In this document: positions 2,240 to 21,444 of the stretch, one piece after another
Layout of the letters: every line of letters starts with the position of its first letter
Numbering within the stretch: the stretch's first letter is position 1
Assembly (NCBI GenBank): GCA_903898645.1
Contig: CAIUGE010000018.1
Span: 1 to 21,589, forward strand
Direction: 5' to 3'
DNA length: 21,589 bases
Origin: Oligoflexia bacterium
Lineage (GTDB): Bacteria > Bdellovibrionota > UBA1018
Position numbers and translations under genes: made by a program
Notes under the pieces: generated by a model
Seen by the model: the letters and a program-made list of their open reading frames with translations, nothing else
Database searches by the model: none
Told to the model about the DNA's origin: nothing

Positions 2240-2956
2240 TCAAGAGCTCCCAAGATAAGATTGTCGTAAAAGATCAGATGCCAAAAGCTCTGAGGCTGGA
2301 GCTTCTGCTACAATGGAGCCTGTCTCCAGCACAATGCCTCGATGGGCTATGCGGAGAGCTTGGAGGGCGTTCTGCTCAACAAGGAGTATCGTGACCCCAT
2401 GCTCAGCATTGAGCTGTTGAATAATACGAAAGATTTTCGCAATCATCTGTGGCGCAAGTCCGAGGCTCGGCTCGTCAAGCAAAAGAATGTCGGGATAGGC
2501 CATCAATGCACGGGCCATTGCCAGCATCTGCTGTTCACCTCCAGACAATGTGCCTGCATTTTGAGAGAATCTTTCCTTGAGGCGAGGGAACAGAGCAAGA
2601 ATCCGTTGCTGATCTTCAGTGAAGAGTCCTTTGCGACGATTACTCCATGTGCCAAGCTCAAGATTATCGGCTACTGTGAGATTAAGAAAAATGCCTCGGC
2701 CTTCAGGGACGTGGCTCATGCCAATTCGGGCTATCTGATGCGTTTTTAAGCCTAGGATGGGTTTGCCATCAAATACCACCTTGCCGGCGCTCGGTTGAAT
2801 GAGTCCTGAGAGTGCTCGTAAAATGCTCGTTTTACCAGCACCGTTTGACCCAATAAGCGTGACAATATGTCCACGTTTGATAGAGAAGCTGACCTGGCGA
2901 ATAGCACAGATGGCGCCATAATGGATGCTCAGATTTTCAACATCAAGATGGATCAT
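2240..2956 (-). CDS. livF: Branched-chain amino-acid ABC transporter, ATP-binding protein LivF.
   Basis: Walker A GSNGAGKT, signature LSGGEQQML, Walker B LLLDEP. N-terminal MIHLDVENLSIHYG is typical of LivF. ATGA start/stop overlap with the upstream gene. Confidence 0.9.
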   Translation of the reverse strand: MIHLDVENLSIHYGAICAIRQVSFSIKRGHIVTLIGSNGAGKTSILRALSGLIQPSAGKVVFDGKPILGLKTHQIARIGMSHVPEGRGIFLNLTVADNLELGTWSNRRKGLFTEDQQRILALFPRLKERFSQNAGTLSGGEQQMLAMARALMAYPDILLLDEPSLGLAPQMIAKIFRIIQQLNAEHGVTILLVEQNALQALRIAHRGIVLETGSIVAEAPASELLASDLLRQSYLGSS

Positions 2957-3741
2957 GGCTCACTCCCTAAATATGCTTCGATGACACGAGGGTTCTTTTG
3001 AATTTCGTGGGGTGTGCCTTCGGCAATTTTTACTCCATAATCAAGGACTATGATCCTTTCGCAGACATTCATCACAAGATGCATATCATGCTCAATCACG
3101 AGTATGGTCATCGCATGCTCTTTTTGTAAGAAGCGGATGAGGTTGATGAGTGTTTCTGTTTCGGCTGGGTTGAGTCCTGCTGCAGGCTCGTCAAGTAGAA
3201 GAAGGCGAGCACCTGTTGCCATGGCTCTTGCGATTTCTAGTCTCCGCTGATCTCCATAAGGAAGGTTTTTGGCAAGCATATGTATTCGGGTTTCTAAATG
3301 AAAAAGTTCAAGGAGCTTTTTTGCTTGAGCGACCTGCAAGGCTGCATACCGTCGAGATCGAGGAGATCCAAAAATCCATTCGAGTGCGAGGATGTTATTG
3401 TTGCCGTCAGATGCAACAAGGATATTGTCTAGTACGGAAAGCTCCCTGAAGAGTCGGATGTTTTGAAAGGTTCTTGCGACATGGAGTTTTCTCGTAATGC
3501 AGCTTGGCGATTTTCCAATCAGTGCTTGCCCAAAAACATGGATAGAGCCTGCTGTGGGGCGGTACACGCCTGTGAGCATATTAAAAATCGTTGTCTTACC
3601 TGCTCCATTAGGACCAATGAGTCCATAGATTACCTGAGGTGGAATGGTTATTTGAAGATCACGAACAGCACGGAGCCCGCCAAAGGCAATACTTAGATTT
3701 TGGATTTCAAGGGCCTTCATGATCGCCCCCGTTTGCGCCAT
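2953..3741 (-). CDS. livG: Branched-chain amino-acid ABC transporter, ATP-binding protein LivG.
   Basis: Walker A GPNGAGKTT, LLLDEPAAGLNP, and the LivG-typical MLTGVYRPTAG motif. Overlaps livM by 25 nt. Confidence 0.9.
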   Translation of the reverse strand: MAQTGAIMKALEIQNLSIAFGGLRAVRDLQITIPPQVIYGLIGPNGAGKTTIFNMLTGVYRPTAGSIHVFGQALIGKSPSCITRKLHVARTFQNIRLFRELSVLDNILVASDGNNNILALEWIFGSPRSRRYAALQVAQAKKLLELFHLETRIHMLAKNLPYGDQRRLEIARAMATGARLLLLDEPAAGLNPAETETLINLIRFLQKEHAMTILVIEHDMHLVMNVCERIIVLDYGVKIAEGTPHEIQKNPRVIEAYLGSEP

Positions 3742-4631
3742 TTGGAGCTCAAAATGCCTTCTGGGGAAAGGAGCATGAGACTAATAAGCATGATGGCATA
3801 GATGATCATACGGAAATCTATGCGAGTAATGTCTTGGAGAGGACGGAGGGCTTCTCGCATAAAGGTAAGGAGGAAGGCTGCGATAATCGAGCCTCGGATG
3901 TTTCCCATCCCGCCAAGTACGACGATAATGATGATTTCAAAACTCCGGTTAAAGTCGAAAATCTGAGGATTCAGGTATCTCAGGGTGTGAGCAAAAAGTG
4001 CACCGGCACAGCCTGCGAAAAAAGCACCTATCACAAATGCCTGGAGCTTAGCATGAGTTGTGTCGACCCCCATGGCCTCAGCTGCCACTTCGTCTTCACG
4101 GACTGCAAGGAATGCGCGTCCATAGGGAGATCGTAAAATACGTTCTATAGAAAAAAGAGTAATAACCATGCATCCAAAGACCCATGAAAAATTCGACAAA
4201 TGCGCGATATTAGGCAGCCCTCTTGCACCTCCAATGACATTGATGTTGAGTAGAACAACACGGATAATTTCTCCAAATCCAAGCGTCACGATGGCAAGGT
4301 AATCGCCTCTGAGTCTCAGAGATGGCAGGCCAACGATGAGGCCTGCAAAAGCAGCGACACATCCGGCAGTTAGGATAGCAAGTGGAAAGAGGCCTGTCTG
4401 TATAGGCAATGAGAGCGTTATTAAGGCGGCAATATAGCCGCCAATTGACATAAAGCCTGCATGGCCCATAGAAAATTGACCTGTACAACCATTCACAAGA
4501 TTGAGACTCATAGCGAGGATGGCGTTGATCCCTGCATAAAGTAAGATAGATACAATATAGGAATCAACAGATGGGATAATAAAATACCCAATGAGCCATA
4601 TCGCGCCGAGCGCCACGATGAGTTTTTTCAT
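3717..4631 (-). CDS. livM: Branched-chain amino-acid ABC transporter permease LivM.
   Basis: Polytopic hydrophobic 304-aa protein between livH and livG. Its composition matches LivM-family permeases. ATGA overlap with the livH stop. Confidence 0.8.
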   Translation of the reverse strand: MKKLIVALGAIWLIGYFIIPSVDSYIVSILLYAGINAILAMSLNLVNGCTGQFSMGHAGFMSIGGYIAALITLSLPIQTGLFPLAILTAGCVAAFAGLIVGLPSLRLRGDYLAIVTLGFGEIIRVVLLNINVIGGARGLPNIAHLSNFSWVFGCMVITLFSIERILRSPYGRAFLAVREDEVAAEAMGVDTTHAKLQAFVIGAFFAGCAGALFAHTLRYLNPQIFDFNRSFEIIIIVVLGGMGNIRGSIIAAFLLTFMREALRPLQDITRIDFRMIIYAIMLISLMLLSPEGILSSKWRKRGRS

Positions 4632-5530
4632 ACCTTTTCCGTTGCCTTGGTTCCAAGAAGGCCTGTTGGCTTGAAAAGCAGTATCAAAATAAGAAGCCCA
4701 AAGGCGAGTGCATCCTTGTAGGTAGGTGCCCAGTACCCAACAAGAAACTCTTCAGCAAGTCCGAGAAGCATGGCTCCTACTACGGCTCCTGTGATATTGC
4801 CAATGCCCCCAAGGACGGCAGAAATAAATGCCTTGAGTCCTGGCATGACGCCCATCAACGGCTCTATTTTTGGGTAGGCAAGACCGACGAGAACACCGGC
4901 TGCGCCAGCTAAGGCTGAGCCCAGCATAAAGGTGAGTGAGATAACGCGATCGGTAGGGATGCCCATCAGAGCTGCGAGCTCATGATTGAAGCTCACAGCC
5001 CGCATTGCGCGCCCCGTGCGTGTTTTCATGATGATTGTTTGAAGGATGATCATAAGCCCGAGCGAGATAACAAAGACAATGATTTGGATCGGGTTTATTG
5101 TCAGTTCACCAACATGGATCATGCCTGATGGCCGGTAGAGTTGAGGGAAAAATTTGGCATCAGAGCCGAAGAAGAGCTGGCCCGAGAATTGAAGGAGCAG
5201 GGAAACGCCAACAGATGTAATAAGTACATTGATACGAGGGGCATGGCGCAGGGGGCGGTAGGCACAGCGCTCAATAATGTAGCCAGCAAGAGCGCAGCCT
5301 GTCATTGCCGCTCCTAGGGCAATCAGGAGGGAGCTGATTCCAGGATTGTCGTCCAAATGGAGCCATTGCGAGGTATAAAATCCGATAAAGGCACCCAGCA
5401 TGTAGAGGTCTCCGTGGGCGAAGTTGATCAGCTGCAAAACACCAAAGACCATCGTGTAGCCAAGAGCTATAAGAGCATAGATACTGCCAAGCGATAGACC
5501 ATTGATCACATGCTGAACAAATTCAACCAT
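4628..5530 (-). CDS. livH: Branched-chain amino-acid ABC transporter permease LivH.
   Basis: The N-terminus MVEFVQHVINGLSLGSIYALIALGYTMVFGVLQLINFAHGDLYMLGAF closely parallels E. coli LivH (…GSTYALIAIGYTMVYGIIGMINFAHGEVYMIGSY). Confidence 0.9.
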   Translation of the reverse strand: MVEFVQHVINGLSLGSIYALIALGYTMVFGVLQLINFAHGDLYMLGAFIGFYTSQWLHLDDNPGISSLLIALGAAMTGCALAGYIIERCAYRPLRHAPRINVLITSVGVSLLLQFSGQLFFGSDAKFFPQLYRPSGMIHVGELTINPIQIIVFVISLGLMIILQTIIMKTRTGRAMRAVSFNHELAALMGIPTDRVISLTFMLGSALAGAAGVLVGLAYPKIEPLMGVMPGLKAFISAVLGGIGNITGAVVGAMLLGLAEEFLVGYWAPTYKDALAFGLLILILLFKPTGLLGTKATEKV

Positions 5531-5642
5531 TCACGTATTCTCCCAAAGAAACATGTGCCTACCATTTTCTTGGTTTAAAAGCACGGTCCAATTTTGCCTT
5601 TAAGCATTGACCCTGCTAGGCCTGGTGGTAGTCTTCTTGGTC
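5531..5642. promoter_or_regulatory. Divergent intergenic region, presumed to hold promoters for livHMGF (leftward) and the xer-like gene (rightward).
   Basis: Only a 112-nt gap separates the divergently transcribed livH and the ORF starting at 5643. No sigma motifs could be confirmed by eye. Confidence 0.3.
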
Positions 5643-6464
5643 ATGAGTAAGAAAATTCCAATGAGGCTAGCTATCAAGAGTTTTCAGGGGTTTTTGGAGG
5701 GTACCGGGCGTTCTGCGAATACGTGTCGCAATTATGTGCTCGATCTTGAGGCTTTCGCTGAGTTCTGCCCAACGATTGACCAGATCACAGACGGCGTCAT
5801 TGCTCTTTTCCGGGAAGCACTCAAAGCACAAGGTCTTGGTGCTAATACAAGGCGTCGCAAGCTTTTGACACTTTCGCTTTTTTTTAAATATCTTGCGCGG
5901 CGCAAAAAGATTGACCTTTTGTTCGCAAGAAAAATGCCAGCGCCACATAAAGTAGAGCGTATCCCAGAGACAGTACCGCTTGCTGATTTTAAAGCGGCAG
6001 TTCTCCAATTGCCACAAGGTCCTGTACGTCTCCTTCTTTGGGTGATGATTGAAACGGGCTGTCTTGTTAGTGAGCTGATTAAACTTCATCGTAATGACTG
6101 GGCCGTGCCTATTCTTGTGATTGATAAAGGGTGCTCTCGTGAGCGTACCTTGGTGCTTTCAGATAACATGTTGAGTAGTGAGCTTGAGTCCATGCCTCAA
6201 GGCAGTCTGTTTCCTGGGCGTACGTCTGTCGGATGTATGTCTGCGCGTGCTGTTGAGCTGGTTCTTGCAGACCTCTCTCCCCAACTTATTGGACATCATG
6301 TAACGCCTCGCGTTTTGCGCCATTCTGTTGTGCGTTTTTGGTTTGAGCAAGGGGTGGGTCAGGATGAGATTAAAAGGCGGCTTGGCTTGAAAAGTAACTA
6401 TGCTTTCAAAGCGTATGGCGCTCTTTTAGATCCAACTTTTAAAGAGCATCCAAGCCCGAAATGA
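5643..6464 (+). CDS. Xer-like tyrosine recombinase paralogue with degenerate catalytic residues (possibly inactive or variant).
   Basis: N-terminal SAM-like domain (FLEGTGRSANTCRNYVLDLEAF, compare LSxNTLxAYRRDL). In the C-terminal catalytic region ETGCLVSEL has Cys where the conserved Arg of GLRxSEL sits (TGT at 6060-6062). RVLRHS has Arg at the first His position of HxLRHS. The Tyr-containing KAYGALL aligns with QIYTHL. The ATG at 5643 is preferred over the TTG at 5607 given in the track. Confidence 0.6.
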   Translation: MSKKIPMRLAIKSFQGFLEGTGRSANTCRNYVLDLEAFAEFCPTIDQITDGVIALFREALKAQGLGANTRRRKLLTLSLFFKYLARRKKIDLLFARKMPAPHKVERIPETVPLADFKAAVLQLPQGPVRLLLWVMIETGCLVSELIKLHRNDWAVPILVIDKGCSRERTLVLSDNMLSSELESMPQGSLFPGRTSVGCMSARAVELVLADLSPQLIGHHVTPRVLRHSVVRFWFEQGVGQDEIKRRLGLKSNYAFKAYGALLDPTFKEHPSPK

Positions 6465-7715
6465 CTCAGAGGGGAGCTTGAGTGCAGCGAGGATTGGGTA
6501 AAAAAGTATAAAAAGACTGATGCAGAGACCGAGGTAGACTTTTCTTGGCCACGTAGCAAAATCTTTGTTACGAAAGAAGACATAGGCGAGGGCTAGGCTG
6601 AGCATCATGCCAGCAGGGTAATAGTAGTAGTAAAACTGAATCCTGCGTGGGATAAAAAACCAGCACCCGTAAAAAAGTACATAAAAGTAGATAATAAAAA
6701 AAGCGCTGCGTGCTCTTTGGTGCACTAACGCGCGCAGACAATAGATAAGCGCTAGCATACCACTCCACATGATTAAGGGGTTGCCGATCATCAGAACGCC
6801 ACGTATCGAATCTTTTCCTTCCTTATCAAAGGAATACCAGATAGGGCGCCTGAGAAGTGGCCAGTCAAGAGGGTAGCTCATGTAGGGGTGATTGCTGATA
6901 ACACGAAGCTGGCCCCCGTACATGGTGATCTGTGCTTGGATAAGCTCCGAGAGGGATCGTGGTCCACCTGGTGTGAGAAAAAGAGGGATGTAGGTGAGTG
7001 CATACACACCAAGAGGCAGAAAGATAAAACAGACCGCAATATCTTGAAAGGTTATCCCTTGCCAGAGTTTTTGACTGTACCAGTCAGTTTGTCTGGGTGT
7101 ATCAAAAAAAACGCGCCACGATTGAAGTGTGCGGACCAAAAGGATAAGACCTAGGATACCAAGCCATGGAATGATCCCAAACCATTTGCATGCTATTGTG
7201 AGCCCAAGCAATATGCCTGTACGTGCCCAGAGGGTTACAGTTGCTGTCTGTGAGGCACCCTCGATTCTCCAGCTATCTGCGAAGAATGCCAGTGCCCAGA
7301 TCAAAAAGCCAATCATATAGCTATCAAGCATCCCGATTCTGGCTTGCACAAAAAGAAGGTTATTTGAAAGGGTGACCACTGCAACAAAAAGAGCAGCCTT
7401 TTTGCTACGGAAGAGATTGAGGGCAAGTGTGTACATGCCAGCAAGGGTAATACCGCCAAAGACAGCACTGAGAAAACGCCATCCAAAGGGTCTGTCGCCA
7501 AAAAGCCAGATGCTGACAGCGAGGATCATTTTACCAAGGGGGGGGTGTTCCCAGTTCTGATTTGTTTTCCATGTAAGGATCTGGTTTGCTGAGGGGACAT
7601 AATGGAATTCATCAAAACTAGCGCCACGCGGAAATTGAATATTGATCAGGAAAAATGCGGTACTGAGAAAAAACAGAATAATGGGGATTTTCAAAGGCGA
7701 GTTTTTCAGGTACAC
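6426..7715 (-). CDS. PMT/ArnT-like GT-C family membrane glycosyltransferase (PMT_2 / GT39/GT83-like).
   Basis: A 429-aa polytopic membrane protein. The first periplasmic loop carries FDEFHY, which resembles the DE motif of dolichyl/undecaprenyl-phosphate-sugar glycosyltransferases. GDRPFGWRFLSAVFG-type segments follow. It overlaps the convergent xer-like gene by 39 nt. Confidence 0.55.
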   Translation of the reverse strand: MYLKNSPLKIPIILFFLSTAFFLINIQFPRGASFDEFHYVPSANQILTWKTNQNWEHPPLGKMILAVSIWLFGDRPFGWRFLSAVFGGITLAGMYTLALNLFRSKKAALFVAVVTLSNNLLFVQARIGMLDSYMIGFLIWALAFFADSWRIEGASQTATVTLWARTGILLGLTIACKWFGIIPWLGILGLILLVRTLQSWRVFFDTPRQTDWYSQKLWQGITFQDIAVCFIFLPLGVYALTYIPLFLTPGGPRSLSELIQAQITMYGGQLRVISNHPYMSYPLDWPLLRRPIWYSFDKEGKDSIRGVLMIGNPLIMWSGMLALIYCLRALVHQRARSAFFIIYFYVLFYGCWFFIPRRIQFYYYYYPAGMMLSLALAYVFFRNKDFATWPRKVYLGLCISLFILFYPILAALKLPSESFRAWMLFKSWI

Positions 7716-7768: not shown

Positions 7769-8251
7769 ATGCATTCGAATGATCCATGTCCATGCGGGAG
7801 CTTGAAGAAATATAAACGTTGCTGTGGAAAAAAACCAACGGATGCTCCCGTTGTTGTTGATCCTCAGTCCATGAAGGATGCGGCGCAAAATATGGATCCT
7901 GCGATGATGCAGTCAGTGATGGGTGTGTTGCAAAAGATGCCCAAGGGGCAACAGATTCGGTTTCAACAGCTTTCTCAGAAAATAATGCAGGGGAAAAATG
8001 TGACGCGCGAGCTCGCGGATCTTGAGCGGGGCATGGGTGCTGAAGTAAAGGCGCTTCTCGATGTCCTGAAGATGACTCCTCAGTTCCAGTCTGCTTTAGA
8101 GCCACAGGCAGAGATGAGTGTTGAGCAAGCTCAGGAGATCGTGCGTCAGGCTGTCGAAACAGGGAAAGTTTCTGAAACGGAAGCCAAAGAGCTGCTTGAA
8201 ACAAAAGAGACCACACTCTGGAATCGTATTTTTCCAGGAAAGAAAAAGTAA
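7769..8251 (+). CDS. SEC-C-motif (metal-binding CPCGSxKKYKxCCG) domain protein, YchJ-like.
   Basis: N-terminal DPCPCGSLKKYKRCCGK is a canonical SEC-C Zn-binding motif. The rest is helical and acidic. Stop and start overlap with the next gene as TAATG. Confidence 0.6.
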   Translation: MHSNDPCPCGSLKKYKRCCGKKPTDAPVVVDPQSMKDAAQNMDPAMMQSVMGVLQKMPKGQQIRFQQLSQKIMQGKNVTRELADLERGMGAEVKALLDVLKMTPQFQSALEPQAEMSVEQAQEIVRQAVETGKVSETEAKELLETKETTLWNRIFPGKKK

Positions 8252-8970
8252 TGCAGAACTGGGGGGTGATTCAATTACCAGCGTTGCCGCTCAGTGCTGG
8301 TTTTTGTGAGCCGCAGGCATCTGATTTTCTTGAGCATGGTATGCGACTTGTGGAAGAAGCTCGCCTGTGTGCTGGATTTGATGGGCTGTGGATCGAGAAC
8401 TACAGCGATGCTCCTTTTGGTCCTCTCCATCCTGCGGCTATTGCTGCCTGCTCTATGCTTGTTGCAGCTCTCCGTGAAACCTTTGATCAGCAATTGGGCC
8501 TTTGGATCCACGGTGATGAGCATGCGGCTCTCGGTATTGCTTCAGTAACAGGATGCACAGCAATACGTATAAGTGTTCCATCGGCTTCTTTAGTACGCAC
8601 ACGTACACAACTTGGGGCTCGAAGTGTTCAGTTTTTTGCAGATATAGTGACGCGCCCTTGGAGTCGAACAGAACAGGAGCGTCTTGTTGTGACTATTGAA
8701 GAGCTCTATTTTCGTTTTCAGGCTGATGCCATCGTTGTACGGGGTCCTGGCTTAGGTCGTGAACCTCATGATGCATCTTTGGAGTGCATCTCTGAAATAG
8801 CTCGTCGGTACGGTATTCCAGTTTTTCTTGGCAGTGGGGCACAAAAGGATCGATTGCCCGTCTTTGCTCCGTTAGTAGATGGGGTTTTTTGGGATGGGGC
8901 ACTTCGTAAAAAAGGAGAGCTTGGTGCTCCTCTTGATCGAGCTCGGGTACGGCGTATACTTAAAACATGA
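8251..8970 (+). CDS. BtpA/SgcQ-family (TIM-barrel) protein.
   Basis: VIQLPALPLSAG … GFDGLWIENYSDAPFG matches the BtpA-family signatures (HLxPLPGSP … IENFGDxPF), as recalled. RBS AGGAAAG upstream. Confidence 0.55.
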   Translation: MQNWGVIQLPALPLSAGFCEPQASDFLEHGMRLVEEARLCAGFDGLWIENYSDAPFGPLHPAAIAACSMLVAALRETFDQQLGLWIHGDEHAALGIASVTGCTAIRISVPSASLVRTRTQLGARSVQFFADIVTRPWSRTEQERLVVTIEELYFRFQADAIVVRGPGLGREPHDASLECISEIARRYGIPVFLGSGAQKDRLPVFAPLVDGVFWDGALRKKGELGAPLDRARVRRILKT

Positions 8971-10154
8971 AGACCCTTGGTCAACTTCTTCTCCGGCGGT
9001 TATCTCGTAAGCCAAAAGGGCAGACAGACAAAGGGCGAACGCCAGCTTCACAGAAGAAGAAAAAACGGTCTTCTAAAAAAATCCAGCTTTCAGTTCCTAG
9101 TCCTCAGGCACAGACGGCGCTTACCCTGGTACCCGCTTTCCGCACACAGCAAGAGCAGTCGTCGCAGACCTTGGTTACAGGCGATCTGATACGGCCGCAC
9201 GATGATCTCAAGAAATGTATTGAGGCGTTTTTGTGCGATCAGCGCTCTCCGCATACCCGTAAGGCTTATGGGAAGGATCTGAAGCGCTTTGTGCGCTTTC
9301 TTCGTATGCGTCAGCACGCCTTTGGGCTCGAACAATTGACGCGCAGTATTGTGATTGCTTACAAAGAGTACCTTTTGGCAGACGGCCTCCAGGATACGAG
9401 TGTTGATCGGCATTTGGCGACGCTCAAGAGCTTTTTCTCATGGCTTGTAGATGATGGGATTTTGATGAAAAGTCCGGCTGATGGGGTGCGCTTTCTTAAT
9501 CCCAAGCGACTTTCGACAACTAACGGATTTACAGATGAAGAGGTAGTTCGTGTGCTGCAAGCACCTAATTTGCACGCACGGTCAGGCGCTATGCACTATG
9601 CTATACTTATGGTGCTTTTTTACTGTGGCTTACGGCGCAGCGAGGTGACGCAGCTACGAGTCTCGAGCATTGGCCTTGAAAAGGGCAAGCACCATGTGCT
9701 TCGGGTGCGAGGTAAGGGCAACCAGGAGCGGATGCTGGTGCTTTTACCTACTGTATACCATGCGATTTGTTACTATCTGACGCTCTCAAGGCGGACGCCC
9801 AAGCCAGATGAGTTTTTGTTTGCACCTATCAGAAATAATCGCACCAAGGTGCTTGCGAAGGGGATAGACCCATCTATGGTATTTTACATTGTTACCAAGT
9901 ATGCGAAAAAAGCTGGCATCCAAACGCGTGTATCACCCCATTCCTGTCGAGCAACGGCAATATCTAACGCTCGCGATCATCATGTGCCAGATCGCGCGAT
10001 CCAAGAGTTTGCTGGTTGGGCATCACCTGATATGATTACACATTATGATAAGCGCCGAACCTTGATTGAAAATGCAGCAGCCTGGAGTATCCTCTATGGG
10101 AGAAATGAAAGAGATCTTCCAACGATTCGTGAAGAAAGCGACACGCCAGCATGA
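8967..10154 (+). CDS. Site-specific tyrosine recombinase, XerC/XerD family (intact catalytic residues), with an unusual Lys/Ser-rich ~80-aa N-terminal extension.
   Basis: Core-binding domain motif HTRKAYGKDLKRF. Catalytic motifs: GLRRSEV (Arg I), RGKGNQERMLVL (Lys), HSCRAT (HxxR), GWASPDMITHYDKRR (Trp and Tyr). ATGA overlap with the btpA-like stop. Confidence 0.8.
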   Translation: MKTLGQLLLRRLSRKPKGQTDKGRTPASQKKKKRSSKKIQLSVPSPQAQTALTLVPAFRTQQEQSSQTLVTGDLIRPHDDLKKCIEAFLCDQRSPHTRKAYGKDLKRFVRFLRMRQHAFGLEQLTRSIVIAYKEYLLADGLQDTSVDRHLATLKSFFSWLVDDGILMKSPADGVRFLNPKRLSTTNGFTDEEVVRVLQAPNLHARSGAMHYAILMVLFYCGLRRSEVTQLRVSSIGLEKGKHHVLRVRGKGNQERMLVLLPTVYHAICYYLTLSRRTPKPDEFLFAPIRNNRTKVLAKGIDPSMVFYIVTKYAKKAGIQTRVSPHSCRATAISNARDHHVPDRAIQEFAGWASPDMITHYDKRRTLIENAAAWSILYGRNERDLPTIREESDTPA

Positions 10155-18321: not shown

Positions 18322-18927
18322 ATGCAGCTACTTAAAGGTCTTGTTCTGTGGAGTTGTATTGGTAATTATGCATTCGCCGTTTGTGAACACGAGAGAAGTG
18401 AGTACAAGGAATTTTATGATCTCCATGAGAAATTGTGCGCTGCATCTCAGGTTTGTAATATAGCAGGGAACGCGCTGGGAATTGGCTTTGCGATTCCCAC
18501 ATTCGGTCTGAGTTTTGTCCTTGGGGGTTTGGTGGGAGGCGTCCCTGGGTTAGCAGTTCACAATGCGCGCCGGATCAGAGATGAAAAAAAAGTAAATCTT
18601 GATCGTTGTGAAGCCCTTGCTGAGCAGGAGCGACAAGCGCGTCAGAATCAATTACAGCTTGATCTAGCTGCACAACAGCAGAGAGAAGTGCGGGTAGATA
18701 CTGTGCAAAAAAAATACGATCAGCAAATGATTCAAGCCGGAACTCAGTACCGAGATGCAGTTCAGCCTCTGATTCAGGGAATGGTAGATGAGGGCATCGA
18801 TACAACATTGCCTGAAGCGATTGAGGTTATTGCAGGGGCGAAAAATGATCTCACGACTGCCCTTAATCGTCAATTAGAGGAAATCAATAGTCATCGTCGT
18901 AGCGAGTTAGACCAGGCATCATTATGA
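18322..18927 (+). CDS. Membrane-anchored coiled-coil protein. It has an N-terminal signal-peptide-like segment, a ~42-aa bilobed hydrophobic domain (Inc-like) and a Gln/Glu/Arg-rich coiled coil.
   Basis: Preferred start ATG at 18322 (MQLLKGLVLWSCIGNYAFA…); the track's GTG at 18274 and the ATG at 18301 are alternatives. Hydrophobic block CAASQVCNIAGNALGIGFAIPTFGLSFVLGGLVGGVPGLAV (~18436-18560). Coiled coil EQERQARQNQLQLDLAAQQQREVRVDTVQKKYDQQ. The stop overlaps the next start as ATGA. Confidence 0.5.
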   Translation: MQLLKGLVLWSCIGNYAFAVCEHERSEYKEFYDLHEKLCAASQVCNIAGNALGIGFAIPTFGLSFVLGGLVGGVPGLAVHNARRIRDEKKVNLDRCEALAEQERQARQNQLQLDLAAQQQREVRVDTVQKKYDQQMIQAGTQYRDAVQPLIQGMVDEGIDTTLPEAIEVIAGAKNDLTTALNRQLEEINSHRRSELDQASL

Positions 18928-20663
18928 GTTTTGCAAAAGGTCTTATGCTTGCTCTCGTGGTGGCTCATGGCACCTGTGCTGCTGGAAATGAGGACCGTCC
19001 GCCTGTTGGGTGGTTGGAGGCGAGCATAGGTGGGCCATCAGCGCCCTCTGCTTCTTTTCAGAGTTTGGGTAATAGTGACATTAGTGCACTCTTTGGCGTC
19101 GGGCCGGATATAGCCGGCCCGCTCTTGCGTCATAGCCAAAACGCTGTTGCACGTGCAGAGAATAGTGAGCGGCAGATTCAACAGAGCATTGATGAGAGCG
19201 CTCGGCGTACAGAAGACAGGGGGCGTAGCGTAGCTGCACTGACTGATGAGATGCAAGGTCTCATCAGTCAATCAGTTGAGGATATGTTGCAAGCAAGAAG
19301 ACTGAACCGGGCAGTGGTTGATTTGAGTCAGGCGCCTTTTGTTGCAGAAGCAGATCTGCCTTACCAATTCCATTCGCCAGCCGGAGAATTTCATGAAGAA
19401 GTAGTTCAGCTTTATAGGGATTTTTATCAGATTGAGCCTCGATTTGGTAAGCAACAAAAAGCAAAAGAGATAGGGCTGATAGCAGTTGAAGAGGCTGATC
19501 ATGAATTTTTTCTAGGTGACAGAGCAAGTGCTGAGGCTTTTAAGGAGCTCAGCATAGGTTTGCTCGATGTGGCGGTTGGACTTGATCCTGTGACTGGGTT
19601 TGGCCGATCTGCCTATGAGCTTTTGTATGGAATAAATTTGATCACAGGTGCAAAGCTTGGTACCCTTGAGCGCAGTCTCGCATTTGTAGGGGTTGCGACA
19701 GCGGGTGGTTCGAAATCCATCACCCAGACCAGTAAGGTCATGTGGCGCATTTTTGAGCGCACAGGTCACCTTCTGCAAGATCGTCATGCAGTCCAGATAG
19801 CGATACAAGCAGGAGAGCGTCTCGTTGAGCGTGCGGGTCACTTGCTTGGCGCATGGCGAAGAAATTACAAGATAACGGCCATAGAGGATGCGGTTGCGGG
19901 GAATGCATTATTTCCTCACTCTCCGCCACCATTTCAGCCTGATACGCAGGTTGTGTTTTTCGAAACAGTGAAAGACAAGGTAGCAGCTGTCATGGGCACC
20001 GCTGCTGATGGAACCACAGGTACTTTTGCGCTGGACATTTTAACAGCAGGAAGAGTTGCGGTTGGTCCAGTAGCTGACGCCGGGTCTGCGGCTGATTATG
20101 TATTCCATAAAACTGAGGAACCTTTGACTATTGATGCTACTGCTGCATTTCAGCCTGATACTGGTGTTGGCACCTTGGGTCAGCCTGCGTTGGACCAGAA
20201 AGCGAAGGAGCTTCAGCAGGACCCTGGGTATCAGGCTTCTGGTGCTGGTATAGGCATGGGTACGACAGGAGATGCTCCGGTTGGTTCAGCGGCGGACGTC
20301 GGTTCTACTGCTGGACACGTGCTTCGTAAAGTGCCGGAACCAGTAGCTACGGATTCTGCTGGGCAGGCGGATGCAGTTAAGCCAACCTTTGAGCCTAACC
20401 CGAAGCACGGAGCAGGTCAGAAAGGCAGAGCAAACCCTGCACCTACTAATCCGCAAGAGACACTTGATAACTCAGTGAGAGTATCCGAAAATTCCTCGAG
20501 AAAAGTTGGGGCCGATAAGGCTACTGGGGAGTTTGACGTTTTTGATGAGCACGCGGCTGGGAAGTTCCACGGACATTCTAGGGTCTGGGAAGAGTTAACG
20601 GAAGCGATGAAGTCAGCGTTAATAAAAGAAAAAATCACTAACCATAAAGGCAAGATTCTATGA
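18924..20663 (+). CDS. Large secreted hypothetical protein (579 aa). It has a Sec-type signal peptide, an RHS-like DPxTG motif, Gly/Ala/Thr-rich internally repetitive region and a His-rich C-terminal ~85-aa module. Candidate toxin or effector.
   Basis: N-terminus MSFAKGLMLALVVAHGTCAAG. LDPVTGFGRS (DPVTGFGR at 19584-19607) resembles the DPxTGRF motif of RHS/polymorphic-toxin cores. Internal 16-nt direct repeat CATTTCAGCCTGATAC at about 19930-19945 and 20146-20161 (both encode FQPDT). C-terminal module from about 20403: KHGAGQKGRA…GEFDVFDEHAAGKFHGHSRVWEEL. ATGA overlaps on both sides. Confidence 0.55.
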   Translation: MSFAKGLMLALVVAHGTCAAGNEDRPPVGWLEASIGGPSAPSASFQSLGNSDISALFGVGPDIAGPLLRHSQNAVARAENSERQIQQSIDESARRTEDRGRSVAALTDEMQGLISQSVEDMLQARRLNRAVVDLSQAPFVAEADLPYQFHSPAGEFHEEVVQLYRDFYQIEPRFGKQQKAKEIGLIAVEEADHEFFLGDRASAEAFKELSIGLLDVAVGLDPVTGFGRSAYELLYGINLITGAKLGTLERSLAFVGVATAGGSKSITQTSKVMWRIFERTGHLLQDRHAVQIAIQAGERLVERAGHLLGAWRRNYKITAIEDAVAGNALFPHSPPPFQPDTQVVFFETVKDKVAAVMGTAADGTTGTFALDILTAGRVAVGPVADAGSAADYVFHKTEEPLTIDATAAFQPDTGVGTLGQPALDQKAKELQQDPGYQASGAGIGMGTTGDAPVGSAADVGSTAGHVLRKVPEPVATDSAGQADAVKPTFEPNPKHGAGQKGRANPAPTNPQETLDNSVRVSENSSRKVGADKATGEFDVFDEHAAGKFHGHSRVWEELTEAMKSALIKEKITNHKGKIL

Positions 20664-21004
20664 GTAACCAGTATGAAAAGCCTGGCGTCCTTTCCAAAGA
20701 AGAGACTCTCAGTATCCTGAATGGTAATAATACAGTGGAACAAAAGGTACATGCTCTTGTTGGATCAGTTAATGCCATTGAGGACCATGCGTGGTTGCAA
20801 GAGCTATGTTTGAGCTATGTAAACCACAAAGATAAGTGGATAGCAGGAGCAGCGATAAACGGATTGGGAGACATAGCTAGGATCTTTGGTCAGCTTGACT
20901 TGAAGCTAGTGTTGGACAAGCTTAATACCACTAAGTCAGAACGAAAAGACCTAGCAGGTAAGATCGAAGATGCCATAGATGATATTAAAACTTTCGTAAA
21001 GTAG
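20660..21004 (+). CDS. Small soluble hypothetical protein (114 aa), translationally coupled to the preceding large protein. Candidate immunity or chaperone partner.
   Basis: Its ATG overlaps the upstream stop (ATGA). No TM segment or signal peptide, mildly acidic, no recognisable motif. Confidence 0.45.
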   Translation: MSNQYEKPGVLSKEETLSILNGNNTVEQKVHALVGSVNAIEDHAWLQELCLSYVNHKDKWIAGAAINGLGDIARIFGQLDLKLVLDKLNTTKSERKDLAGKIEDAIDDIKTFVK

Positions 21005-21444
21005 GTATGCTCTATGGGTTTTGATTTTTGGTTCAGTCCTTGTAAGGTCTAACTTTCTCCGTATGTTCCGCAGTAAAATGCCCGTATGAGAGCATGAGGA
21101 CGTTCTCGTTTTTGGCGTGCTTTGCACGAACCCATGCATCAGCGAACGTACATCCTCTTGCCAGTGTCGCTGGCCACTGGAGATGGCAAGCAAGCTAAGA
21201 CTGGTCGTCAATGACATATGTCGCAGTCCAGATTTACCTGGAAGCGTGATGGAAGTCCAAGTGACAGAGTCTTCTCGAATATTCGACTTCGAAAGACCAC
21301 ACCTCATGGCTTTGGATTCGCGCCTCTGCTGCAAGCCGTCCAGGTTCAAGCGGTGAGCGCACTCTAGGCTTTTTTTAAGCCTTGGATTTTTACATAACGC
21401 AAAATCGTTATGTAGGAAGGTAGAGTTCCATAACTCGGATTATT

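Follow-up and report, generated by a model that had tools for sequence, protein, structure and literature searches.

Proteins that resemble tyrosine recombinases but are dead as enzymes have so far been scattered cases, namely an XerD-like protein of streptococci, the phage protein YopR and the transposon protein TnsF. The first of these, YnbA (streptococcal and lactococcal; NCBIfam NF002685), is chromosomal and conserved and lacks two residues of the R-H-R-Y tetrad together with the extreme C-terminus; it gave no recombination, did not bind difSL and is not the enzyme that resolves dimers, and the same genome encodes an active Xer protein, XerS (PMC1914069). YopR (MrpR), the master repressor of the Bacillus phage SPbeta, has the core-binding plus catalytic (CB+CAT) fold with most of the catalytic residues lost, and is a DNA-binding protein without activity as a recombinase (bioRxiv 10.1101/2022.10.21.513154). 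In TnsF, the target selector of Tn6022-like Tn7 elements, an inactivated tyrosine-recombinase domain has been co-opted for the sequence-specific recognition and bending of DNA (PMC10293859). A role apart from catalysis is also described for XerD of B. subtilis, which is described as a sequence-specific unloader of SMC at the XDS sites of the terminus (PMC12322038, PMC11840125). The protein considered here, which we call XerL, a name used both for the single protein and for its Xer-like family, is encoded at positions 5643-6464 (+) of a 21,589-nucleotide stretch, hereafter the window, that represents contig CAIUGE010000018.1 of an Oligoflexia bacterium (Bdellovibrionota; assembly GCA_903898645.1). 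A further recombinase gene of the window is referred to as Xer2 (Table 1).

What do Xer proteins do beyond cutting DNA? The XerL family is a natural system for asking this question, as here a whole dead family has long been under selection, in a fixed block with an active Xer protein and, in several genomes, with a classical dif site. The pattern of substitutions in XerL, kept throughout an uncultured clade of relatives of Bdellovibrio, is that of a repurposed DNA-binding protein rather than that of a decaying integrase, and it is very likely that the protein is a non-catalytic, sequence-specific DNA-binding and bending factor that derives from a Xer recombinase and has been kept by selection. 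The more specific reading favoured here, to which a probability of roughly 0.6 may be given, is that XerL is an inactive, vertically inherited Xer paralogue that acts at Xer-type (dif-like) sites in the biology of the terminus. Searches of the literature and of curated models found no paper or model describing the family.

The XerL fold and its altered catalytic pocket

The protein has the two-domain architecture of XerC and XerD, as the original prediction had proposed. The N-terminal SAM-like core-binding domain scores 43.5 bits with PF02899, for which the cut-off is 22.3, and within it lies an NTRRRK motif (nt 5844-5861) that is conserved across the family, with N68, R71 and R72 invariant. 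The C-terminal domain matches PF00589 (Phage_integrase) below threshold (16.5 bits against 27.1). A profile built from 56 family members nevertheless has E. coli XerD (1a0p, E 1.4e-22) as its best relative of solved structure and also matches archaeal XerA (4a8e, E 3.5e-22; 5hxy), while an AlphaFold2 model calculated from the family alignment reaches a mean pLDDT of 89.7 and is paired by Foldseek with XerA, lambda integrase, IntI4, XerH and Cre at a probability of 1.00. Judged from the model and the profile matches, the tyrosine-recombinase fold of the C-terminal domain is clear despite the Pfam score. The NCBIfam models for XerC and XerD (TIGR02224/TIGR02225) score XerL at only 59.8/60.2 bits against cut-offs of 335.15/329.6, so that it is not an equivalog of either, and Xer2, at 129/119 bits, likewise falls far under these values; because the two scores are almost equal, XerL and Xer2 cannot be assigned as XerC or as XerD. 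Among phage-family models only the generic phrog_1 matches XerL. The family as a whole is strongly basic (median pI 10.2, net charge about +22), and this charge, together with the NTRRRK motif, would fit with retained DNA binding.

Fundamental to the interpretation of XerL is the state of its active site. The residue equivalences come from three independent alignments that agree with one another (phmmer against XerA, MAFFT with E. coli XerD and Xer2, and profile-to-PDB), where the key segments of the sequence used for the E. coli XerD numbering agree with the 1a0p alignment. The segment ETGCLVSEL pairs with GAGLRVSEL and YATGLRVSEL, such that Cys140 stands opposite the Leu of G-L-R and Leu141 opposite Arg-I. 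The original prediction, which had read the catalytic Arg as changed to Cys, was thus right about the loss of Arg-I and one residue out about what replaces it; it had itself foreseen an error of one position, although the corrected register does not restore an Arg to the catalytic position. Its second substitution, of the first His of HxLRHS by Arg, stands as proposed: TPRVLRHS pairs with TPHQLRHS and SPHVLRHA, placing R223 at His-II. A third change had been overlooked, in that LGLK lies opposite LGHS and the His/Trp-III residue of the pocket is therefore lost as well. The Glu of the RxSE motif is kept as E144, the beta-hairpin Lys is probably kept as K162, the exact column being alignment-dependent, and Tyr258 aligns with the nucleophile column, in keeping with the earlier claim that the region of the nucleophile Tyr is retained. 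Of the full catalytic set of R-K-H-R-H/W plus Tyr, three of six are hence replaced in the window protein (L141, R223 and L249). Beyond the nucleophile position the protein continues for 15 residues, where the family median is 14 and E. coli XerD has 19.

How does this compare with the known systems? XerL is like XerC and XerD in being a chromosomal two-domain protein that, in relatives, is encoded near a classical dif site, and is unlike them in the replacement of Arg-I, His-II and His-III. The closest functional analogue is YnbA. As in YnbA, two tetrad residues (Arg-I and His-II) have been lost and the C-terminus is shortened, which is a resemblance rather than demonstrated common descent. 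XerL covers the NF002685 model from end to end and scores 45.3 bits, against 15.8 for Xer2; however, the cut-off is 178 and XerL is not a member. It also comes from a different phylum and has a different neighbourhood, made up of liv, PMT, SEC-C, BtpA and Xer2, near dif, and catalysis was probably lost independently in the two. Unlike XerL, a chromosomal core gene product with clear Xer similarity, YopR is phage-encoded and has less than 25% identity to recombinases, and TnsF, which resides inside a transposon, carries zinc fingers at its N-terminus and has its CB domains in duplicate. A sister family of degenerate Xer-like proteins is found within the same phylum, in Halobacteriovorax marinus (BIY24_09460; P0299), in Halobacteriovorax sp. 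HLS (P0266) and in many metagenome-assembled genomes (MAGs) of Halobacteriovoraceae, a family in which it is widespread, cultured strains included. Its signature is K-[R/K]-[K/R]-R-V. It shares with XerL the NS/TRRRR and PRGVE motifs, the change of His-II to Lys or Arg and of His-III to Val or Leu, and the retention of Arg-II and Tyr, but it differs in having Lys rather than Leu or Gln at Arg-I and is only 22-25% identical. In the one sister-family locus examined (L065:8001-8951; P0166) the gene adjoins rnc-era-der, with no Xer2 within 8 kb. The cultured B. bacteriovorus HD100 is reported to have a conventional xerC and xerD (Bd3064 and Bd2300; PMC11318664).

Family conservation, gene order and dif-like sites

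Are these substitutions peculiar to the window copy? A word-indexed search of 5.8 billion proteins gave 55 homologues at 31-43% identity, making 56 members with the window copy. Their named sources are MAGs of Oligoflexia, Bdellovibrionales and Bacteriovoracia, and the labels that they carry, 'site-specific recombinase XerD' or 'integrase', are probably wrong as to activity. Across these 56 members the replaced positions are themselves highly conserved, Arg-II is invariant and the nucleophile position is not (Table 1). An exhaustive HMM search of 1.84 billion representatives returned 204 proteins at E <= 1e-30, and the [L/Q]-K-R-R-L signature still holds among hits that score as low as about 170 bits, which adds some 100 representatives at the level of 50% identity. 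Because the same pattern runs through all of the homologue sets, the substitutions are defining traits of the family and not marks of decay. A quarter of members do without the nucleophile, a strong argument against covalent catalysis.

The reading frames of all XerL orthologues from 50 species-level genome loci are full-length. Ratios of dN/dS were taken from between-species pairs, only one of which (L047/L055, dS 0.80) is unsaturated; in this pair XerL has a value of 0.093, the PMT gene next to it one of 0.074 and BtpA one of 0.064. On this measure the XerL family is under purifying selection, with a dN/dS of about 0.09 that is similar to that of its neighbours. The exact window protein is present in a public collection (P0001) and the gene occurs on four other metagenome contigs, where its DNA is 100% identical to that of the window and hence carries no information on dN/dS at the population level. 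Of the 56 positions with a conservation of 90% or more in the other members, 49 are unchanged in the window protein, where the range among members is 41-56. The original prediction had held that substitutions shared by orthologues would imply function, and ones unique to this copy decay; they are shared, and selection is purifying. Its suggestion of a dead regulatory or architectural paralogue is supported by the family-wide non-canonical residues, with Phe as the nucleophile in 13 of 56 members, from the full-length frames and dN/dS, and from synteny.

The order of genes around XerL is liv (-), XerL (+), PMT (-), SEC-C (+), BtpA (+) and Xer2 (+), and it recurs in distant relatives, being found in dozens of the 56 loci. 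These loci are from one-genome-per-species contigs, were fetched within limits of +-10 kb and are nearly all labelled Bdellovibrionota (Oligoflexia, Bacteriovoracaceae and Bdellovibrionia). The 3' ends of XerL and the convergent glycosyltransferase gene overlap by exactly the 39 nt given by the original prediction, and since such an overlap is seen in 33 of 43 orthologous loci it is, on this comparison, ancestral and not peculiar to the window. The recombinase 2.5 kb downstream is intact, as had been claimed, and has all six canonical residues. Xer2 has a Trp in place of His-III and is extended at its N-terminus by a basic stretch of about 80 aa, rich in Lys, Arg and Ser; the length of this extension is very variable among orthologues (totals of 337-575 aa), and the nearest homologues are MAG proteins. 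The Xer2 gene overlaps btpA and the downstream MFS gene by 4 nt each, and the genes may accordingly form a SEC-C/BtpA/Xer2/MFS operon. Among the 33 orthologous loci that reach at least 6 kb downstream, 19 carry Xer2.

A further element of the argument is the dif site. That of B. bacteriovorus HD100 is TCTTCTGATAAGTTATATTATGTAACGG (PMC2731167), and related loci were scanned with it as the query. A dif-like site, (R)GTCTGATAA-GAAATA-TTATGTyAAC, is strongly conserved in nine species-level loci, with 0-2 mismatches over 20 nt, and lies 4-10 kb downstream of the XerL orthologue. Written for the clade as AGGTCTGATAA-GAAATA-TTATGTTAACC, the site has the classical asymmetric layout of a XerC arm and a XerD arm, the one on the right being in essence the XerD arm found universally. 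At one locus (L033) it is found 206 bp past Xer2, and at L008, the one locus compared with gene calls, it falls between two called genes; for five or six of the nine, Xer2 is not in the fetched stretch. Given this distance of 4-10 kb, the XerL block is near dif, and presumably near the terminus, in several relatives.

Proposed function of XerL and rival explanations

With both DNA-clamping domains retained, along with a positively charged pocket (Glu144, probably Lys162, Arg223 and Arg226), XerL could bind and bend a specific DNA site. Because Arg-I and both of the His residues have been lost, it would not cut and rejoin that site. At dif-like sites the protein might thus be the non-catalytic partner of the active Xer2 encoded nearby, or its regulator, or might alternatively serve as a catalysis-independent terminus factor comparable to the SMC-unloading role reported for B. 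subtilis XerD, where the link between XerL and SMC is drawn purely by analogy. A purely catalytic partnership of XerL and Xer2 is unlikely, because a heterotetramer with two dead subunits would, by the mechanics of XerCD, stall at the Holliday junction. The family may have begun as a duplicate of a Xer gene that went on to lose catalysis, at an early point in the history of the Bdellovibrionota.

The main rival is that XerL is a transcriptional repressor or autoregulator akin to YopR; it would control the promoter of its own gene and perhaps also the liv operon, which is divergent, or the PMT gene, with which it overlaps. YopR itself sets the precedent that a recombinase fold without catalytic residues can repress (bioRxiv 10.1101/2022.10.21.513154), and XerL is divergent from the liv operon in most loci, although this arrangement may be inherited synteny only. 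A possible operator, the feature expected of a YopR-type system, is seen at many orthologue promoters. Some 17 orthologous loci have a promoter close to consensus, GTTGAC-N17-TAATAT, about 7 nt upstream of the start codon, such that the XerL mRNA in these orthologues may be leaderless. The two arms of an inverted repeat, (TC)GTTGAC ... GTCAACGA, bracket this promoter, and their spacing is fixed at 46 bp (examples in Table 1). The downstream arm, which runs over the 5' end of the gene, is conserved as DNA even where a 1-nt insertion alters the encoded peptide. GTCAACGA occurs at the XerL start in 12 loci and shows no enrichment elsewhere; as a general binding site for XerL it was rejected, since its 31 occurrences in 760 kb compare with about 23 expected and the excess disappears without the 12 at XerL starts. 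The repeat is a candidate operator. However, the half-sites are 46 bp apart from start to start (about 38 bp between 8-bp arms), where the core spacer of a recombinase is 6-8 bp; the upstream arm is the -35 box, so that the repeat may partly be mere promoter; and the GTCAACGA element is absent from the window copy. In the window, the weaker promoter-like sequence in front of XerL was not called by a consensus promoter scan and the mRNA is possibly leaderless, to judge from its position, while an imperfect palindrome, TTCTT-GG-TCATGA-GT-AAGAA (5620-5667), part of a 27-nt inverted repeat that is 70% complementary, is centred on the XerL start codon and might suit this reading. Taken together, the repressor reading is an unlikely one, albeit the strongest of the competitors.

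Could XerL instead still be active, with a rewired pocket in which Arg223 takes the place of Arg-I and the nucleophile is either Tyr258 or Tyr253, the latter more than 90% conserved in the family? The window protein does keep Glu144, the Lys, Arg226 and Tyr258, the new Arg is conserved at His-II, and type IB topoisomerases are active with a Lys at the equivalent of His-II. Yet three of the six pocket residues have been replaced, two of them by aliphatic Leu, and 15 of 56 members have Phe, Leu or Arg in the nucleophile column. We know of no active tyrosine recombinase or type IB topoisomerase without Arg-I. YnbA, which is also without two tetrad residues, showed no recombination (PMC1914069), and a rewired enzyme is accordingly improbable. 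Less credible still, to the point of being negligible, is the view that XerL is a pseudogene, the decaying integrase of an old mobile element, which the original prediction had offered as its second option. In its favour may be counted the PF00589 score under the gathering threshold, the 5-residue deletion in the window copy, which is the shortest member, and a tRNA-Leu gene 3.4 kb upstream of XerL. But the frame is intact and shows no decay, full-length orthologues in more than 50 species-level genomes carry the same substitutions, most of the conserved residues are kept and dN/dS is low. A phage or integrative and conjugative element (ICE) integrase would be looked for at the edge of a mobile element and in a patchy distribution, whereas XerL has housekeeping neighbours and synteny in dozens of species; there are no phage, ICE, conjugation or Tn7 genes among the window genes, and the liv operon stands between XerL and the tRNA. 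It is the conserved position, these neighbours, the lack of phage and conjugation genes and the location of the tRNA beyond liv that exclude a decaying element, and protein identities of 32-43% between loci, along with the species-level spread, likewise exclude a single element that spread recently.

The reading of XerL as an inactive Xer paralogue at dif-like sites has weaknesses of its own. The window holds no dif-like site from -5.6 to +15 kb of XerL, as scans with the HD100 dif core, the clade consensus and a degenerate GATAA-N6-TTATG gave nothing above chance; the linkage of XerL and dif may be only inherited gene order. Of the 33 loci with enough downstream sequence, 14 have no Xer2, and XerL and Xer2 are not co-transcribed, since PMT lies between them on the opposite strand. 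Canonical XerC and XerD, if also encoded in these organisms, would make a partner role for XerL unnecessary. The streptococcal analogue YnbA neither bound its dif site nor affected XerS (PMC1914069). Finally, the window protein is not only the shortest member but among the more diverged, with a median identity of 38% to the others against 44% for all pairs, and it lacks the near-invariant Arg-Asn (R-N) pair that opens the RNRxLLW motif.

A broader and decidedly speculative extension is that the Bdellovibrionota have split the Xer jobs, with Xer2 resolving dimers at dif and XerL, together with its Halobacteriovorax sister family, binding dif or its half-sites and organising the terminus, for example by gating recombination or by unloading SMC complexes through a dedicated dead paralogue. 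Were this true, the function that Xer proteins have apart from catalysis would be an old and separable one, and it could be tested in a cultured predator. The XerL family could also help to explain chromosome segregation in predators that divide from multi-chromosome filaments.

Other features of the window

Table 1. Positions of the features discussed, in the window unless a related locus (L number) is given, with residue counts for the 56 XerL members
Feature	Position	Strand	Details
XerL ORF, degenerate tyrosine-recombinase paralogue	5643..6464	+	273 aa; intact; ORF list and translation
XerL N-terminal core-binding (SAM-like) domain	5676..5906	+	residues 12-88; PF02899
XerL C-terminal catalytic-type domain, non-canonical pocket	6027..6416	+	residues 129-258; profile matches, AlphaFold2, Foldseek
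Arg-I position, Leu141 (CTT)	6063..6065	+	alignments; preceding Cys140 at 6060-6062; family L40, Q12, S2, R2
Lys position			family K51
His-II position, Arg223	6309..6311	+	alignments; family R54, K2
Arg-II, Arg226, retained	6318..6320	+	alignments; family R56 (invariant)
His/Trp-III position, Leu249	6387..6389	+	alignments; family L55, V1
Nucleophile position, Tyr258	6414..6416	+	alignments; family Y41, F13, R1, L1
Putative weak promoter, TTGACC-N17-TAGTCT	5607..5642	+	ends 6 nt before XerL ATG; predicted from sequence
Promoter/inverted-repeat examples in orthologues	L012:2187-2240, L016:3115-3170, L057:1227-1285, L031:8005-8062
dif-like sites in related loci	L008:19090, L009:20609, L017:7922, L027:13739, L031:17982, L033:14342, L036:17509, L044:7890, L058:14596
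liv-type branched-chain amino-acid ABC transporter genes	2240..5530	-	upstream, divergent; ORFs; BPD_transp_2 and ABC_tran on identical L001/L002 genes
PMT-type GT-C glycosyltransferase	6426..7715	-	convergent; PF02366, PF16192, PF13231; syntenic in relatives
XerL/PMT convergent 3' overlap	6426..6464	.	39 nt
SEC-C motif protein	7769-8251	+	Pfam; synteny
BtpA-family protein	8251-8970	+	Pfam; synteny
Xer2, catalytically complete recombinase	8967..10154	+	395 aa; PF00589 80 bits; R, K, H, R, W, Y

The remaining genes of the window are of housekeeping type and encode a kinase-like protein, an MFS transporter, a flotillin-like protein, a DUF2079 protein and a methyladenine glycosylase. The tRNA-Leu(GAG) gene (2115-2199, -) is the only tRNA gene, sits directly downstream of the liv operon and has no integrase-type junction.

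Between genes at 21391-21418, with 170 nt left to the end of the contig, two 9-bp arms form a perfect inverted repeat around 6 nt, TACATAACG-ATTTTG-CGTTATGTA, followed by AAAAAT in the minus-strand reading. The right side of this repeat resembles a XerD arm (TTATGTAAAAA). As a dif site it was set aside, since it would need a 10-bp spacer and has no counterpart in any of the fetched related loci; it may represent a dif that has diverged, the hairpin of a terminator or a chance occurrence.

Two further observations stand apart from XerL. The profile-to-PDB search turned up a chain of 401 aa (9i5v_14) that is deposited as 'Ribosome-associated translation inhibitor RaiA'. About 270 residues of this chain, with the motifs RRSE, HVLRHS and LGH, align in the manner of a canonical Xer-type recombinase; the entry has no connection with the window and may be a fusion or a labelling oddity. 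Within the window, a 579-aa protein (18924-20663, +) has a weak, sub-threshold match to Pre-toxin TG (PF14449) and is followed, with a 4-nt overlap, by a small ORF (20660-21004), such that the two may form a polymorphic toxin and immunity pair.

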